Assembly (NCBI GenBank): GCA_963753185.1
Contig: CAVWBO010000007.1
Span: 2,507,805 to 2,571,804, forward strand
Reading direction: 5' to 3'
DNA from: an uncultured Acidimicrobiia bacterium
GTDB taxonomy: Bacteria > Actinomycetota > Acidimicrobiia > Spongiisociales > UBA5794
DNA length: 64,000 nucleotides
Shown here: piece after piece, positions 52,331 to 59,285 of the stretch
How the letters are laid out: each line of letters begins with the position of its first letter
How positions within the stretch are numbered: the stretch's first letter is position 1
Translations under genes and position numbers: made by a program
Notes under the pieces: model-generated
The model's input: only the letters and a program-made list of their open reading frames with translations
What the model was told of the DNA's origin: nothing
Databases searched by the model: none

Positions 52331-52639
52331 ATGACGGAACGACACCACACGCTCCGACCGGTCGGCGCCCGCTATTGGTGGGTGTCCACCATCCTCCTTG
52401 GCGTCCTTGTCCTGACCGTCGTGAACATCGTGAGCACGATCGGTCGCATGGAAAACCGGAACGCGCTGATGGCGCCCTTCCTCGAGTGTGTCGAGCAATC
52501 CGGCGGAACCTTCACCGAACCAACGCAATGGATGAAGGCAGGGGGGCGTCCCATCGTCATCCCAGCGACCGAGGTCAGCGAGGAGGACCGTGAGATCCAT
52601 CGAGTCTGTTGGGAGCAGGTGCAGTACTCAGGGCCCTAG
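52331..52639 (+). CDS. hypothetical membrane-anchored small protein
   Basis: 102 aa, one TM helix (WWVSTILLGVLVLTVVNIV) then a soluble Cys-containing region. Modest RBS. Confidence 0.35.
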   Translation: MTERHHTLRPVGARYWWVSTILLGVLVLTVVNIVSTIGRMENRNALMAPFLECVEQSGGTFTEPTQWMKAGGRPIVIPATEVSEEDREIHRVCWEQVQYSGP

Positions 52640-52671
52640 CGGACCATCTGCTCTTCCCTGATGTCATCTCG

Positions 52672-53202
52672 ATGTCGATTCAGCTCCGTACCAAGGGCGT
52701 GAGCGAGTCAGGGTCAGCCAGCACGGGCATCGAACGCATCGACCGGTCGATCTCGGCCTTCCTCCGGCGTTGGTCGATCCCGACGCTGCGAGTATCACTC
52801 GCCATCGTGTTCATCTGGTTCGGGGCGCTGAAGGTGTTCGACGTCACGCCCGTGACCGATCTCGTTGCCAGCACGGTGTACTGGTTCGACCCCGACTGGG
52901 TGGTGCCCGTCCTCGGCGTGTTCGAGATCCTCGTCGGTGTCGGGCTGCTGTTGCGGATCGCCTTGCGTGCTGTTCTGGCCCTCTTCGCCGCACAGATGAT
53001 CGGAACGTTCCTCGTCCTCGTGCTCCTGCCAGAGATTTCGTTCCAGGATGGCAACCCACTCCTGCTCACGGTCGAAGGAGAGTTCGTCATCAAGAACCTC
53101 GTTCTCCTCTCTGCCGGGATGGTGGTCGGCGCAACCGTGAGAACCAGGCACGCCTTCGCCATCCGAACCGAGACCGACGAGCGACTCCCCGACCCCAGTT
53201 GA
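52672..53202 (+). CDS. DoxX/DUF417-like membrane protein
   Basis: RVSLAIVFIWFGALKVFD resembles the DUF417/YkgB motif. Four predicted TM helices. Confidence 0.5.
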   Translation: MSIQLRTKGVSESGSASTGIERIDRSISAFLRRWSIPTLRVSLAIVFIWFGALKVFDVTPVTDLVASTVYWFDPDWVVPVLGVFEILVGVGLLLRIALRAVLALFAAQMIGTFLVLVLLPEISFQDGNPLLLTVEGEFVIKNLVLLSAGMVVGATVRTRHAFAIRTETDERLPDPS

Positions 53203-53425
53203 ACCCCGGGCCGACGCGGTCAGCACCAGCGTCACCGCCATCCGAGGTCCCAGACGCACGCGAGCTCGTGTCTACGCCTCGCGCCCCCGCCTCCTAAGGC
53301 GCGTACTAAGAAATCGATAAGGAAAAACCTAATGGATTGATGGACATCGGATCCCATCCGTCGCTACCTTGGACTTCTCGCAGCGTCCACGACGCCGCGA
53401 ACAACGGGAAAGAGATGGAGGAACC

Positions 53426-55135
53426 ATGAAGCGAACGACCGCATGGTTCATGTTGGTGCTTGCACTTGCGATGGTTGCGTCAGCGTGTTCCGGAGATGAC
53501 TCCGGCGAGCCTGAAGAGACGACGACCACCACGACCGAGGCACCAGCTGAATCGACAACCACGACAACGAGGGCTCCGGACCCAGGGTTCGAAGGCCTCG
53601 TGCTCGACGCAGGAGGCTGTGACTACGGCGGCCGCGTCGAGAAGATCAGCGCCACCGATGAGTTCACCGTCGAATTCGACCTGTGCGGACCGCACCCCGC
53701 GTTCCTGTCACAGATCGCCTTCAGCGTGTTCGGCATCCAGCCACAAGAGCACCTCGAAGCGACCGGCGGCTCACCACTCGACGAACCTGTCGGGACCGGC
53801 CCGTACTCCCTTCAGGACTGGATCCGAGGCGACTCGGTCGTGTTTGCGAGGAACGACAGCTACTACGGCACCGTCGCTCCACATGAGACGTTCGTCCTCA
53901 AGTGGGCAACGGAGAGCGCAGGACGGCTCATCGAGCTCCAGAGCGGCAACGCTGACGGAATGACGTTCCCCGCACCCGAGGACATCTCGGTGATCGAGGG
54001 AGACGCCAACCTGGTGCTCCTTGACAAGCCGGAGCCGAACATCTTCTACATGGGCTTCACCAACACGTTCGAGCCCTGGAACGATGTCAGGATCCGCAAG
54101 GCCGTTGCACTCGCGATGGACCGCCAGAGGATCGTCGATACGTTCTACCCGCCGGGTTCCGAGACCGCATCGCATTTCACACCCTGTTCCGTGGAGAACG
54201 GATGTGAGGGCGAGTCGTGGTGGGACCAGGACGTCGAAGCCGCGAAGGCCCTGATGGCCGAGGCTGGCTACCCAGACGGGTTTGCGACGACGATCTACTA
54301 CCGGGACGTGACCCGTGGGTACCTGCCTACGCCAGGCAACGTCGCGGCAGACATCCAGGCCCAGCTCAAGGAGACACTCAACATCGATGCACAGGTCATC
54401 GTGCTCGAGTCCGGTGAGTTCATCCAGTCGTCCTCGGCTGGCGAGCTCGACGGCATCCACCTCCTCGGGTGGACCGGCGACTACCCGCACGTGACGAACT
54501 TCTTGGACTTCCACTTCGCAGACACGAACCTCCAGTTCGGTGATGCGCATCCGGAGATCTACGAGCCACTCGCCACCGCCTCGCAGACAGCGAGCGCCGC
54601 AGAGGCTGCTCCACTCTACGAGCAGGCGAACAACGCCATCAAGGAGCTCATCCCGATGATCCCGATCGCCCATGGTGGCGCCGCCTATGCAGCGCTGGCA
54701 TCGGTTCAGGGTGCATACGCTCCCCCATGGGGCGACAGCCAGTTCAACCTGTGGGACAACGGCGGCGACACGCTCGTGTTCGTCCAGGGCAACGAGCCCA
54801 TCTCGTTGTACTGCGCTGACGAGACCGACGGTGAGTCACTGCGGGCATGCTCGCAGATCGTCGAGTCTCTGTACTCGTACGCACCAAACGGTGACGTCCA
54901 GCCACAGCTCGCGACCGAGTGCGTGCCGAATGAAGACCTGTCCCTGTGGACGTGCTCGCTCCGTCAGGGCGTCACGTTCCATAACGGTTCGACGTTCGAT
55001 GCGAACGACGTCGTCGTCTCGTTCACGGCGGGACTCGATGCTTCGAGCCCGTTGCACACCGGCAACAGCGGTGTGTTCGAGTACTACGACTACCTGTGGA
55101 ATGGCCTGATCAACGCACCGGCGTCAGACGGATGA
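53426..55135 (+). CDS. ABC-transporter substrate-binding lipoprotein, family 5 (DppA/OppA-like), apparently circularly permuted
   Basis: Lipoprotein signal MKRTTAWFMLVLALAMVASAC and a Thr-rich linker. All family-5 SBP segments are present, but the segment that is normally N-terminal (LRQGVTFHNGSTFDANDVVVSF...YDYLW) sits at the C-terminus. Confidence 0.8.
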   Translation: MKRTTAWFMLVLALAMVASACSGDDSGEPEETTTTTTEAPAESTTTTTRAPDPGFEGLVLDAGGCDYGGRVEKISATDEFTVEFDLCGPHPAFLSQIAFSVFGIQPQEHLEATGGSPLDEPVGTGPYSLQDWIRGDSVVFARNDSYYGTVAPHETFVLKWATESAGRLIELQSGNADGMTFPAPEDISVIEGDANLVLLDKPEPNIFYMGFTNTFEPWNDVRIRKAVALAMDRQRIVDTFYPPGSETASHFTPCSVENGCEGESWWDQDVEAAKALMAEAGYPDGFATTIYYRDVTRGYLPTPGNVAADIQAQLKETLNIDAQVIVLESGEFIQSSSAGELDGIHLLGWTGDYPHVTNFLDFHFADTNLQFGDAHPEIYEPLATASQTASAAEAAPLYEQANNAIKELIPMIPIAHGGAAYAALASVQGAYAPPWGDSQFNLWDNGGDTLVFVQGNEPISLYCADETDGESLRACSQIVESLYSYAPNGDVQPQLATECVPNEDLSLWTCSLRQGVTFHNGSTFDANDVVVSFTAGLDASSPLHTGNSGVFEYYDYLWNGLINAPASDG

Positions 55136-55208: not shown

Positions 55209-56288
55209 ATGCTCGGTTTCATCACACGTAGAACGCTCGTAGCGATCCCCGTCCTCATCGGGATCGTCGTCGTCGTGTTCTTCCTGATCAGGGCGATCCC
55301 CGGGGACCCATGCACGTCGCTTCTCGGCGAGCGGGCCACCGCGGAGGCCTGCGAACGATTCAACGAGGCGAACGGCCTCAACGAACCCATCTGGGTCCAG
55401 CTCGGGATCTACATGAAGAGCGTGGTGACGTTCAACCTCGGCGACTCGATCCGATTCTCACGGCCGGTGAACCAGCTCCTCATCGAGCGCCTCCCGACCA
55501 CGACCGAACTCGCTGTCTCCGCTCTGACGCTGTCGATCGCGGTCGGCGTGCCATTGGGAATCGTCGCCGCTCGGCGACACAACTCCGCGGTCGACGCTGC
55601 CACGATGGCGTTCGCGAACGTCGGCGTCTCGATGCCGGTGTTCTGGCTCGGTCTGATGCTTGCCTACCTGTTCGCGATCGTGCTCCAGGGCACACCGCTC
55701 GAGCTGCCACCGTCTGGCCGGTTGACCGCAGGCGTCTTCTCCGTCCCCTACTACGAGGTCTGGGATTGGAACCTCAACGAGGGCACGTTCTGGGCGAGCT
55801 TCCACGAATACGTGGCGAACCACGTCATCTTCAACAGCTTCATCACCGCCCAGTGGTCCGTGTGGTGGGATGCCGTCAGGCACATGATCCTCCCCGCAAT
55901 CGCGCTTGCGACGATTCCGCTCGCCATCATCGCGCGGATCACACGGAGCTCTCTGCTCGAGGCGATGAACAAGGATTACATCCGCACGGCTCGGGCGAAG
56001 GGCGCATCCGAGACGAGGGTGGTGCGAAAGCATGCACTCAGGAACTCGATGCTTCCCGTCGTCACAATCATCGGGCTCCAGCTTGGCGCGCTGCTCGGTG
56101 GCGCCGTTCTCACCGAGACGGTCTTCCGACTCGCCGGGATCGGTACGGCGCTCTTCGATGCCGTCACGGGGAGGGACTACGCAGTCGTACAGGGATTCAC
56201 CGTTGTCATCGCGACGGTGTACGTCGTCGTGAACCTCCTCGTCGACCTCTCCTACGGCTACCTCGACCCGAGGATCAGGGTGAAGTAG
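55209..56288 (+). CDS. ABC-transporter permease (DppB/OppB-like)
   Basis: Six TM helices and the EAA-like motif (YIRTARAKGASETRVVRKHALRN). Confidence 0.85.
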   Translation: MLGFITRRTLVAIPVLIGIVVVVFFLIRAIPGDPCTSLLGERATAEACERFNEANGLNEPIWVQLGIYMKSVVTFNLGDSIRFSRPVNQLLIERLPTTTELAVSALTLSIAVGVPLGIVAARRHNSAVDAATMAFANVGVSMPVFWLGLMLAYLFAIVLQGTPLELPPSGRLTAGVFSVPYYEVWDWNLNEGTFWASFHEYVANHVIFNSFITAQWSVWWDAVRHMILPAIALATIPLAIIARITRSSLLEAMNKDYIRTARAKGASETRVVRKHALRNSMLPVVTIIGLQLGALLGGAVLTETVFRLAGIGTALFDAVTGRDYAVVQGFTVVIATVYVVVNLLVDLSYGYLDPRIRVK

Positions 56289-57239
56289 ATGACGAGCCGA
56301 AAGACCGTTGAACTCCTCGAATCCGCGGCTGCCGCGCAGCTGCTGACCGATCCCCCGACCAGCCAATGGCGTCTCACGCTCAAGCGGTTCCGTGGACGCA
56401 AGTCGGGCATGATCGGCCTCGGCATCGTTGTCGTCCTCATCCTCGTCGCCATCTTCGCCCCTGTGATCGCGCCGTACGGACCGAACGAGGTACTCATCGG
56501 AAAGCAGGACGTCGGACCACGGGAGAAGCCATGCGTCCACATCCTCGGATGTGATCCCGACCAGCCCCAACACATCATGGGCACCGACGGCAACGTGCGT
56601 GACGAGTTCTCACGCGTGATCTTCGGGGCTCGCGTCAGCCTCACACTCGGCTTCTTCACGGTGACGATCGCCCTCATCATCGGCAGCATCCTCGGTGCGA
56701 TCGCCGGATACGTCGGCGGGTGGTTCGACAACATCGTGATGCGATTCATGGACGTGATCCTCGGTTTCCCATCCCTCGTGCTCGCGATCGCGATCGTCGC
56801 CGTGCTCGGCCCCGGACTCCAGAACGCCCTCATCGCTATCGCGATCGTCAGCATCCCTGCCTATGCGCGCGTGATGCGATCCCAGGTGCTCTCGATCAAG
56901 GAGAGTGACTACATCTCCGCTTCCAAGGCGCTCGGCCAGTCTGCGTTCGGGATCCTGATCCGCCGCGTCGTACCCAACGCGCTGACTCCCCTCGTCGTGC
57001 TTGCGACGCTCGGCGTTGCCACCGCGATCCTCGAAGCCGCGGGACTGTCGTTCCTCGGCCTCGGCGCCCAGCCCCCGACGGCCGAGTGGGGAACGATGCT
57101 CGCGACGGAGCGCAACAACGTCTTCACGTCGCCTCACCTCGTCTTCTTCCCCGGGTTTGCGATCATGATCACGGTGCTCGGCTTCAACCTCATGGGTGAT
57201 GGCCTGCGCGACGCCCTCGACCCATCACTGAACAAATGA
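56289..57239 (+). CDS. ABC-transporter permease (DppC/OppC-like)
   Basis: Typical DppC topology with the SIKESDYISASKALGQS EAA-like motif. Start is 1 nt after the dppB-like stop. Confidence 0.85.
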   Translation: MTSRKTVELLESAAAAQLLTDPPTSQWRLTLKRFRGRKSGMIGLGIVVVLILVAIFAPVIAPYGPNEVLIGKQDVGPREKPCVHILGCDPDQPQHIMGTDGNVRDEFSRVIFGARVSLTLGFFTVTIALIIGSILGAIAGYVGGWFDNIVMRFMDVILGFPSLVLAIAIVAVLGPGLQNALIAIAIVSIPAYARVMRSQVLSIKESDYISASKALGQSAFGILIRRVVPNALTPLVVLATLGVATAILEAAGLSFLGLGAQPPTAEWGTMLATERNNVFTSPHLVFFPGFAIMITVLGFNLMGDGLRDALDPSLNK

Positions 57240-58288
57240 CGGATCACGAGCCCCTGGTCACGATCGTCCCACCGGATCTCCGGCGTGATTGGGGGGAGCG
57301 ACTCCTCGAGATCACGGGCCTCAAGACGCACTTCGACACCAGAGAGGGAGTGGTCAAGGCGGTCGACGAGGTGAGCATCCACGTGGATCGGGGGGAGGTG
57401 CTCGGCATCGTCGGTGAGTCCGGGTGCGGGAAGTCGGTCATGTCGTTCTCGATCATGGGCCTCGTTCCGAAGCCGGGGGCCGTGGTCGCCGGGAAGATCA
57501 TGTTCAACGGTCGCGACATCCGCGAGATGTCCGAGCGGGAACTTCGGGAGGTTCGCGGCGAGCACATGTCGATGATCTTCCAGCAGCCGGGCTCGGCGCT
57601 CAACCCGGTCCAGAGGGCAGGTGTCCAGATCACCGAGGTCTTCGAGCTCCACCGCGACTGGTCGAAGGACGTTGAGGAGGCAAAGACGCTCGAGATGCTC
57701 GCACAGGTGGGCATCCCCGATCCCGCTTCGCGGGCGAAGGCGTATCCGCACGAACTCTCCGGGGGGATGGCACAGAGGATCATGATCGCCATGGCCCTGT
57801 CATGCGAGCCCGAGCTGCTCATCGCCGACGAGCCGACGACCGCGCTCGACGTCACGATCCAGGCACAGATCCTCGACCTCATCAGGAACCTCCAGGCAGA
57901 GTCGAAGACGGCGGTCATCCTCATCACGCACGACCTCGGTGTCGTCGCCGAGATGGCTGACAGGGTGGCGGTGATGTACGCCGGTCAGATCGTGGAGGAG
58001 ACGGACGTTCGCACGATCTTCAAGGAACCGCTCCATCCCTACACGCGCGGCCTCGTGAAGTCGATCCCCGTGCTCGGTCGCCTCTCCGACACGCTCGAGA
58101 CCATCCCGGGAGTCGTACCGAGCCTGATCGACCTCCCCGTGGGATGCCGCTTCGCGTCGCGGTGCACGGCCCGGGTCGAGAACGATCTCGACATCTGCCT
58201 CGAGGTGGAACCGAGCCTGGACGAGGTGCGTCAAGGTCACAAGGTCCGCTGCTGGCTCTATGCGGACAGGGAGGACGCAGATGGGTGA
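57236..58288 (+). CDS. ABC-transporter ATP-binding protein (DppD/OppD-like)
   Basis: Walker A GESGCGKS, signature LSGGMAQR, Walker [13 protein letters not shown], and the oligopeptide C-terminal domain. Overlaps the upstream permease by 4 nt. Confidence 0.85.
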
Positions 58289-59285
58289 CCCGCTCGTCGT
58301 CGCGAAGGACCTCGTGATGCAGTTCCCGGTACGCGGTGGTGTGCTCCAACGTCAGATCGCAACGGTGAACGCCGTCGCCGGAGTGGACCTCACGATCCAC
58401 CGGGGGGAGACCGTCGGTCTCGTCGGTGAGTCGGGTTGCGGCAAGTCGACGCTGGGGAGGATGCTCGTGCGCCTCCTCCAGCCGACCTCGGGAACCATCC
58501 TCTTCGACGGCGAGGACGTCACGCACGTCTCCGGCAACTCGTTGCGCCCGTTCAGGCGCCGTGCCCAGATCATCTTCCAGGACCCGTACTCGTCGCTCGA
58601 TCCCCGGACCCAGGTCGGTAACTCGATCTCGGAGGGCCTCCGAATCCACGGGGTCTCGGACAAGGACGAACGCCAGACGCGCGTCTGCGACATGCTCGAG
58701 CTCGTCGGGCTCCCACGGTCGGCCAGTGGGCGATATCCGCACGAGTTCTCCGGTGGCCAGCGCCAGCGCATAGGGCTCGCACGTGCCCTGGTCCTCAAGC
58801 CGGACTTCGTCGTGGCAGATGAACCGGTTTCCGCACTCGACGTATCCGTCCAGGCACAGGTCCTCAACCTGCTGAAGGAGCTCCAGAGAGAGCTCCACCT
58901 CACACTCCTGTTCGTCGCACACAACCTCGCCGTCGTCGAGCACATGTCCGACAGGGTGGCCGTGATGTACCTCGGCAGGATCGCTGAGATCACCGACCGC
59001 GAACAGCTGTACCGCGCACCGCTCCATCCATACACGGAGGCACTCCTGTCGGCGATCCCGATGCCGGACCCCGACCGTCCGAGGGATCGCCAGATCCTCC
59101 AGGGTGAGGTGCCATCCCCCATCGATCCACCATCTGGGTGCTATTTCCATCCCCGATGCCCGCTCGCCGTGAAGGGGGTCTGCGACGTCGAGACGCCAGA
59201 GCTCCTCCCCGGGCGCGATCGGATCGACCACCTTGCCTCGTGCCACGTCCGCACGGGATCGCTCTCCACCACGACCACATCCTGA
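58281..59285 (+). CDS. ABC-transporter ATP-binding protein (DppF/OppF-like)
   Basis: Walker [10 protein letters not shown], signature FSGGQRQR, Walker [13 protein letters not shown]. Start at MGDPLVVAK, overlapping the upstream stop by 8 nt. Confidence 0.85.

Follow-up and report, generated by a model that had tools for sequence, protein, structure and literature searches.

A predicted natural circular permutation of the cluster C substrate-binding fold beside a dppBCDF-like operon in an uncultured Acidimicrobiia bacterium

The substrate-binding proteins (SBPs) of cluster C, such as OppA, DppA, and NikA, are among the best-studied components of ATP-binding cassette (ABC) transporters, and they serve as biosensor scaffolds and as routes for drug uptake. 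This study deals with a gene for a protein of this kind (family 5) in a stretch of 64,000 nucleotides from an uncultured Acidimicrobiia bacterium (assembly GCA_963753185.1, contig CAVWBO010000007.1, positions 2,507,805 to 2,571,804 of the forward strand). This whole stretch, hereafter the window, has a G+C content of about 65%. The translated open reading frame (ORF) 53426-55135 on the + strand, 569 amino acids plus stop, is referred to as the query. Its product is predicted to be a natural circular permutation of the cluster C fold, in which the segment that is normally N-terminal comes last, and genes for permeases and ATPases of the Dpp type follow it on the same strand.

Order of the blocks in the encoded protein

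Membership in family 5/cluster C is clear, since the profile PF00496 (SBP_bac_5) matches the query with 220.3 bits (cut-off 32.4, E 5e-65). The match falls into two stretches, the best of which pairs residues 68-368 with profile positions 62-365 of 368, and the NCBIfam models DppA, SapA, GsiB, NikA, and OppA begin to match at their own residue ~110-160. When the query was compared with PDB sequences by phmmer, HbpA (3tpa) 133-507 was aligned with query 73-440 (independent E-value, i-E, 8e-40) and HbpA 9-125 with query 449-557 (i-E 7e-6); for Escherichia coli DppA (1dpe), residues 124-501 correspond to query 71-440 and residues 43-117 to query 488-556. Local alignments pair query 71-440 with DppA 124-501 and query 449-555 with DppA 2-116, and tblastn of DppA on the window places DppA 124-501 at 53636-54745 and DppA 45-116 at 54893-55090 (E 1.4e-7). 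The collinear order expected of family 5, with the N-terminal segment first and the C-terminal strand last, is not that of the query. The order-swapped family-5 protein proposed in a preliminary description of this locus is therefore borne out by two significant swapped blocks with Pfam, NCBIfam, PDB sequences, and E. coli DppA, and the check by profile and pairwise alignment that it had named gives two blocks in swapped order instead of a collinear match. For the comparisons below, three segments are named on the query: A (57-278), B (279-445), and C (446-566). The chain order of canonical proteins such as DppA is C-A-B, while that of the query is A-B-C.

The uninterrupted + strand ORF spans 53369-55135 in the list of ORFs, with TTG 53369 as an alternative upstream start; the ATG at 53426 is preferred because a GGAGG sequence stands just before it (Table 1). 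Both blocks lie in one reading frame within 53426-55135 by tblastn of DppA, so that the single uninterrupted ORF of the preliminary description stands, as do its lipoprotein signal and its Thr-rich linker, which are seen in the sequence. The N-terminus reads MKRTTAWFMLVLALAMVASA-C21, and the query is a predicted bacterial lipoprotein whose signal peptide ends in the lipobox cysteine; A20 and C21 are invariant in 50 homologues. Weak Pfam and NCBIfam matches (New_glue, WKL lipoprotein, invert_tail, MerP) lie within the signal peptide and the low-complexity linker and were judged spurious.

Besides the C-lobe, block 1 contains the remainder of the N-lobe and the returning C-terminal strand. Between it and block 2, the old termini are joined by 8 residues, which replace the 7 supplied by DppA (502-507 plus residue 1), so that virtually no linker has been added. 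The length of this junction is constant to ±2 residues over all permuted subgroups, and its residues W443, G446, and D448 are invariant in close homologues (n=50), which suggests a structured element. At the new ends, the mature query enters the fold at ...GGRVEKISATDEF, equivalent to DppA ~121-130, and the chain finishes with ...FEYYDYLWNGLINAPASDG, which corresponds to DppA ~112-122; in every permuted subgroup the tail stops at the equivalent of DppA ~118-122. The alignments put the cut at mature DppA ~118-124, and the position ~130 given in the preliminary description has to be corrected accordingly. The new N-terminal head of 19 residues (52-70) corresponds to a gap in DppA and in all canonical relatives, and it is missing from the DppA-like basal permuted subgroup. 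It was considered as a vestigial duplicate of the C-terminal tail, but the likeness (FEG.. versus FEYY..) is too weak.

With regard to the lobes, the published domain organisation of DppA and OppA places the canonical N- and C-termini in the N-lobe. DppA residue ~120 presumably belongs, after the DppA and OppA structure papers of 1994-95, to a cluster-C-specific subdomain of the same lobe. Since the canonical termini and DppA ~118-124 are both assigned to the N-lobe, the termini shift within it: on this assumed organisation the new ones probably stay in the N-lobe, in a different subdomain, and the move to a different lobe that had been anticipated was not confirmed. As the new termini fall in the DppA 118-124 loop, the lipid anchor and the Thr-rich tether attach elsewhere on the N-lobe. 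The position assumed for DppA ~120 agrees with the layout of N-domain, C-domain, and returning tail of another cluster C protein, in which the 'extra domain' is defined differently (PMC9314435).

An AlphaFold2 (AF2) model built from 50 homologues reached a predicted template modelling (pTM) score of 0.68 and a mean predicted local distance difference test (pLDDT) score of 74.9. It contains a helix at residues 2-21, a disordered tether (pLDDT <50 at 18-45), a confident start of the mature domain (pLDDT 92 at 51-60), and, around the junction, strands at 442-444 and 449-454. Compared with the PDB by Foldseek, the model finds its best matches in DppA (Yersinia and E. coli), HbpA2, and GbpA (E 2e-25 to 6e-24, TM 0.46-0.64, ~400 columns); TM values in this range are expected, because the aligner is sequential and sees block 1 only. 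Judging from its homology, block 2 would sit at the three-dimensional position of DppA 2-116.

Table 1. Features of the permuted SBP gene and of the transporter genes behind it, in window coordinates
Feature	Position	Strand	Basis
Shine-Dalgarno GGAGG	53417..53421	+	read directly from sequence
Predicted circularly permuted family-5 (cluster C) substrate-binding lipoprotein gene	53426..55135	+	profile, PDB and homologue searches
Signal peptide with lipobox, residues 1-21 (...VASA-C21)	53426..53488	+	sequence; A20/C21 conservation
Thr/Pro/Glu-rich tether, residues 22-51	53489..53578	+	sequence; low pLDDT
New N-terminal 'head', residues 52-70, PDPGFEGLVLDAGGCDYGG, contains C65	53579..53635	+	alignments; pLDDT
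Block 1, residues 71-440 = mature DppA 124-501	53636..54745	+	alignments; Foldseek ~400 columns
R297 = DppA R383 (precursor numbering), ligand carboxylate and scoop loop	54314..54316	+	alignment; PMC12136057
D352 = DppA D436 (precursor numbering), ligand alpha-amino and scoop loop	54479..54481	+	alignment; PMC12136057
Junction of old termini, residues 441-448, NLWDNGGD	54746..54769	+	alignments
Block 2, residues 449-557 = mature DppA 2-116 (normally N-terminal)	54770..55096	+	alignments
New C-terminal tail, residues 558-569, WNGLINAPASDG	55097..55132	+	subgroup alignment
DppB-like permease	55209..56288	+	NCBIfam DppB 292 bits
DppC-like permease	56289..57239	+	profile match; downstream in nearly all related loci
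DppD-like ATPase with C-terminal four-Cys motif	57236..58288	+	profile match
DppF-like ATPase with C-terminal four-Cys motif	58260..59285	+	profile match

Distribution and origin of the permuted order

A word-indexed search of 5.8 billion proteins (clusters from JGI, ENA, NCBI, and Logan) returned at least 120 homologue clusters with 71-97% identity and 90-100% coverage, some of them on contigs of 2-4 Mb. When one genome per GTDB species was scanned, 594 pattern-matched relatives were obtained, and the locus counts given in this work refer to the best 80 of these 594. All 80 are collinear with the query over ~55-565, at 51-95% identity; judged by their record titles, they comprise 29 loci of Actinomycetota (mostly Acidimicrobiia, the best with 95% identity), 48 of Chloroflexota, 2 of alphaproteobacterial metagenome-assembled genomes (MAGs), and 1 unclassified. 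When 1.84 billion representatives at 50% identity were scanned exhaustively with HMMER, the matches listed were mostly single collinear stretches, with identity down to ~28%; the best 150 were analysed for order. With DppA split between residues 123 and 124, 94 of these proved permuted and 10 canonical, the rest being fragments, and a test with three segments found 88 full-length A-B-C proteins and 8 canonical C-A-B ones. The permuted family is a large one, present across Actinomycetota and Chloroflexota.

It is important to note that one window alone cannot exclude a chimeric assembly, and that the upstream TTG offers an alternative start. The gene might in principle be an artefact, whether through misassembly, through a wrongly called ORF, or through the frameshift-healed fusion of two family-5 genes that were each partial. 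The chance of this is negligible, since the same order occurs in at least 120 independent clusters (contigs up to 4 Mb), in 80 species-representative genomes, and in at least 88 divergent representatives, both blocks are in one frame with a conserved junction, and no partial SBP gene lies near the query gene. The preliminary description had named a misassembly or a two-gene fusion as what would overturn it and a search for orthologues of the same order as a check; the former finds no support and the latter has been answered by these counts.

The two alphaproteobacterial loci (L055, Kiloniellales; L079, Devosiaceae, on a 1.26-Mb contig) carry a permuted SBP together with dppBCDF, at 56-59% identity. 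Their presence could be due to horizontal transfer from Chloroflexota or Actinomycetota, or to a binning error. In the source databases the homologues bear the plain name 'ABC transporter substrate-binding protein'; annotation pipelines and domain models mis-describe the permuted architecture as an ordinary SBP.

Some members of the family contain the fold twice. P0172 (1202 amino acids) matches DppA 28-505 and then DppA 30-506, head to tail, in the order C-A-B-C-A-B. The same order is found in P0299 (1208 amino acids, four member sequences, locus L081 2268-5894), while P0258, P0301, and P0303 (1600 residues) read C-A-B-C... and then a Bmp-type SBP domain. The query aligns with these tandem proteins across the point at which their copies meet: its residues 84-565 cover the internal B-to-C junction of P0172 in one stretch, and the alignment over the B-to-C junction of P0299 is almost gap-free, with a junction length within 2 residues. 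Head-to-tail fusion is also the architecture of P0258/P0279/P0301/P0303, some of which then continue with a Bmp/PnrA-type SBP domain. The neighbours of P0299 are a ConA-like/GH43_C2 protein and a beta-helix protein, and there is no permease on its 6.7-kb contig.

A second rotation, B-C-A, is present in P0138/P0273 and in P0227/P0276/P0277, all with their own lipoprotein signal. The cut lies at DppA ~336-340, and the chain runs, in DppA numbering, through 333-501, then 4-118, then 126-340. The clusters of this form comprise 6 and 4 sequences of independent origin, and the contigs that carry them reach 440 kb. Three samples yielded three contigs with P0273, which stands there within a dppD-dppF-SBP-dppB-dppC operon (locus L082 6001-7728). 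In a neighbour-joining (NJ) tree, P0138 and the A-B-C protein P0132 are sisters in 97 of 100 bootstraps, and the two are 66% identical over B+C and 54% over A. The C-to-A junction of P0138 corresponds to the query tail joined to the mature head (79 residues, 43% identity, one gap). From this nested position (97/100) and the tail-to-head match of the junction, it follows that the B-C-A form derives from an A-B-C ancestor, and a second round of duplication and trimming within the permuted clade would account for it.

The topology as such most likely arose by permutation through duplication. In the pathway that we infer, an in-frame head-to-tail fusion (CAB-CAB) would have been followed by loss of the outer C and of the outer A-B, leaving A-B-C; the extant tandems show how readily such fusions come about in the family. 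The cut site is the same, and the junction length agrees within two residues, in all A-B-C subgroups, the DppA-like basal group without the Cys head among them. As read from the alignments, this speaks for a single origin or for one cut that was strongly preferred. The argument for a single origin is drawn from the shared cut site and junction and not from the tree, because the deep NJ nodes reach at most 4/100.

Several observations count against this history. The monophyly of the A-B-C proteins has at most 4 of 100 bootstraps (NJ), which leaves one versus several origins undecided by the tree, and the same tree does not place the tandem fusions relative to the permuted clade. In addition, the two copies of P0172 are 57% identical to each other, as compared with 38% between P0172 and P0299, so that the extant tandems may be later independent fusions and are not demonstrably ancestral. 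These points would also suit a rearrangement without duplication, in which the C-terminal block came from another family-5 gene or the same cut was made several times. Acquisition from another gene was raised by the authors of the study on TpMglB-2 (a permuted SBP of cluster B, treated below), and several basal A-B-C members stand directly behind an SBP_bac_3 domain, which speaks of a lineage prone to fusions. Nonetheless, such a rearrangement is quite improbable, given that the DppA/HbpA proteins which match block 1 best are also those whose N-terminus shows significant similarity to block 2, that in every subgroup, as in the tandem fusions, the length of the junction differs by no more than 1-2 residues from that of the canonical C-terminus plus the N-terminus, and that the B-C-A form comes from A-B-C by exactly the tail-to-head joining that duplication predicts. 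The coexistence of canonical, tandem, permuted, and re-permuted forms provides an unusually complete natural series on the origin of circular permutation.

Transporter genes, binding residues, and cysteines

The neighbours of the SBP gene are permeases and ATPases of the Dpp/Opp/Gsi/Nik type, in line with the conventional dppBCDF-like set of the preliminary description: homologues of dppB, dppC, dppD, and dppF follow (Table 1), with overlaps of 4 nt between dppC and dppD and of 29 nt between dppD and dppF. The hallmark of family 5, namely to be encoded with PepT-family permeases and oligo_HPY-type ATPases, is thus present here, and dppB and dppC stand directly downstream in nearly all related loci having downstream DNA. 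An Rfam scan of the whole window gave no match, and no riboswitch or leader upstream of the operon. Directly upstream of the SBP gene there is a small membrane protein (52609-53202, +) with weak DoxX/DUF417-like matches; it is probably outside the system, because a homologue of it adjoins the SBP gene in one related locus only (L008). In the ATPases, Cys 304/310/321/339 of DppD are kept in 33 of 33 loci and Cys 294/300/308/328 of DppF in 31 of 32. The spacing of these four-Cys motifs resembles that of the [4Fe-4S] ligands of E. coli DppD and DppF (PMC12136057).

The electron cryo-microscopy study of E. coli DppABCDF has revealed that R383 and D436 of DppA hold the dipeptide by its carboxylate and amino groups and that, in the docked state, they form salt bridges with E41 and R42 of the scoop loop of DppB (PMC12136057). 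Their equivalents in the query, R297 and D352, are invariant in 50 homologues and present in 80 of 80 loci. The DppB of the window carries G40-E41-R42 at the same positions as the E. coli scoop loop, and among related loci this loop reads GER in 28 of 75 and GEK in 44 of 75 (together 72/75). Because the clamp Arg/Asp and the scoop loop have been retained, the most likely mode of action would be the Venus-flytrap capture of a dipeptide-like zwitterionic ligand, clamped by R297 and D352, and its hand-off to DppBC, with delivery powered by DppDF. The permutation appears to have altered neither the binding chemistry nor the transfer to the permease, and the protein very probably still serves as the binding subunit of a dipeptide-type importer, to judge from these conserved residues. 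It can be held with good confidence that the query is the membrane-tethered binding subunit of a Dpp-type (peptide/nickel family) ABC importer, with its cluster C fold permuted.

The ligand is presumably a dipeptide-like zwitterion. What tells against so definite an assignment is that the NCBIfam equivalog of DppA (NF043070) scores 159.8 bits with the query, versus a cut-off of 1005, which means that the query is not a DppA orthologue by curated criteria and that the identity of its ligand is not fixed. Moreover, family-5 proteins bind very diverse ligands, many of them non-peptide. A metal-chelate complex, glutathione, an opine, an oligosaccharide, or a cell-wall fragment could be bound instead of a peptide: scores are far below the equivalog cut-offs for GsiB, NikA, and OppA as well, the best PDB matches include glutathione-binding HbpA/GbpA, and the neighbouring genes give no sign of peptide metabolism. 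Such a ligand is nevertheless unlikely, for the Arg and Asp that hold the carboxylate and the amino group of the dipeptide are invariant, and in the partner DppB the acidic/basic scoop loop, which engages the same two residues, has been kept (PMC12136057). Glutathione, for its part, also counts as a peptide, and its amino and carboxylate groups are free.

The cysteines constitute a further peculiarity of the query. There are 9 of them, one fewer than the minimum of ten given in the preliminary description, namely the lipobox C21 and 8 others. In 50 close homologues each of the 8 mature cysteines is invariant, whereas DppA and the canonical relatives have none of them. Their gain and loss in 88 diverse permuted representatives goes by pairs: 254/260 (phi 1.00), 499/510 (phi 1.00), 463/475 (phi 0.95), and 65/87 (phi 0.51). 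The four clade-specific pairs probably form disulfides, as this pattern indicates. Two of them lie beside the topological novelties, C65-C87 by the new N-terminal head and C463-C475 directly behind the junction. As regards the permeases, the only cysteines of DppB are C35 and C48, which flank the scoop loop G40-E41-R42 (the pair is present in 75 of 75 related loci), and the only ones of DppC are C82 and C88, within REKPCVHILGCDPD, taken as an external loop. Together, the Cys pairs of the SBP, DppB, and DppC suggest that the entire extracytoplasmic face of the transporter may be stabilised by disulfides.

Membrane attachment and relation to known systems

A lipobox-like motif (by regular expression) is present in 47 of 87 diverse A-B-C representatives, and 26 of the 87 have more than 150 extra N-terminal residues. 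The permuted domain is the C-terminal module of longer proteins in P0137, P0151, P0142, P0129, P0122, P0125, and P0326. N-terminal extensions were identified for eight checked proteins; they include a Ser/Thr protein kinase (P0137, P0151), a caspase with FHA (P0142), a double zinc ribbon (P0129), and other SBP domains, SBP_bac_3 (P0122) and Peripla_BP_6 (P0125). The architecture of the forms linked to kinases, caspase-FHA, or SBP domains suggests that they may act as extracellular ligand sensors, and the recurrence of the permuted domain as an outer module, in Ser/Thr kinases and in signalling proteins of other kinds, points to ligand sensing beyond transport. It may be speculated that the permuted domain is typically attached at its N-terminus, either to a lipid or to a membrane-spanning signalling protein, which echoes an idea put forward for TpMglB-2.

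Whether this attachment explains the permutation is another matter. Any functional advantage of the permutation is conjectural, and the occurrence of long N-terminal extensions ahead of the SBP domain in canonical-order proteins as well (P0262, 810 aa) weighs against an adaptive reading. It is quite possible, although the doubt is slightly the greater, that the new order was selectively neutral, fixed by chance in an ancestor, and simply inherited. Apart from P0262, this would be consistent with the unchanged ligand and docking residues and operon, and with the TpMglB-2 study, which saw no obvious mechanical advantage. On the other side stand, as suggestive points, the lipobox motifs (47/87) and the long N-terminal extensions (26/87) with their kinases, caspase-FHA, and SBP domains, the new Cys pairs flanking the new terminus and the junction, and the great success of the family across two phyla. 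A more daring proposal, rather doubtful as a whole, is that the family-5 fold behaves as a rotatable circle: recurrent in-frame tandem fusions would have given at least three chain orders, C-A-B, A-B-C, and B-C-A, all Dpp-competent, and A-B-C would have been selected for its moved N-terminal attachment. If this were true, the permuted domain would be better suited to a lipid tether, or to fusion behind a membrane segment as an extracellular sensor of Ser/Thr kinases, caspase-FHA proteins, and multi-SBP proteins, and the family would offer a natural, tractable series for testing permutation by duplication and the role of tether position in docking and signalling. From a practical point of view, the pair of new termini and the zero-linker closure have been validated by nature, which is useful for the design of insertion sites, split sensors, and fusions.

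Regarding precedents, no permuted order was seen among the PDB family-5 sequences, of which 96 distinct ones were matched by the family profile, the best-scoring stretch in all 60 listed covering query ~47-446 only; NCBIfam has no curated model specific to the permuted family; and no description of a permuted family-5, OppA, DppA, or cluster C protein was found in the searchable full-text literature, many subscription journals lying outside its coverage. The preliminary description, whose author was not aware of any report, is in agreement with these searches. The query is a new topological variant of a very well-known kind of protein, for which an earlier description is possible. The only natural SBP permutation in the literature searched is TpMglB-2, other finds being engineered sensors with circularly permuted GFP (cpGFP).

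TpMglB-2 (Tp0684) of Treponema pallidum is a circularly permuted glucose-binding lipoprotein of cluster B, for which the label 'Cluster Bc' has been proposed (PMC4990184). It shares with the query a natural permutation, the position of the normally N-terminal strands at the C-terminus, and the tethering as a lipoprotein. Its homologues occur mostly in organisms with tethered SBPs, and its authors speculate that the topology is an adaptation to tethering, although they found no obvious mechanical advantage (PMC4990184). Nonetheless, TpMglB-2 is a sugar-binding protein of type I/cluster B with N-lobe strands in the order 5-4-6-1-2-3, whereas the query belongs to family 5/cluster C and falls outside 'Cluster Bc'. 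The permuted part of TpMglB-2 is 13% identical to the canonical N-terminus, while the homology of block 2 of the query is statistically significant, and tandem intermediates and second rotations, both present in the query family, have not been reported for TpMglB-2. The two cases together strengthen, without proving, the link between SBP permutation and membrane tethering.

Among canonical proteins, DppA of E. coli and Yersinia (1dpp, 1dpe, 5f1q, 8z1y) is the best match to the query in sequence and fold, with an identity of only ~24-27%. Both have the Arg/Asp ligand clamps, the DppB scoop loop, and the operon components in common; DppA is soluble and of the order C-A-B, whereas the query is lipid-anchored through a Thr-rich tether, of the order A-B-C, and carries the four clade-specific Cys pairs. 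HbpA2/GbpA of Haemophilus parasuis (3tpa, 3m8u; glutathione- or heme-binding) is the top phmmer match and gives the clearest swapped alignment, which takes in nearly all of the N-terminal block (its residues 9-125), although it is a soluble periplasmic protein of canonical order. Within the actinobacteria, DppA and OppA of Mycobacterium tuberculosis are presumably of canonical order too. Like the query, they are lipid-anchored family-5 SBPs of Dpp/Opp translocators (context in PMC12136057); these translocators are heterotrimers with a fused double ATPase, whereas the locus of the query encodes separate DppD and DppF.

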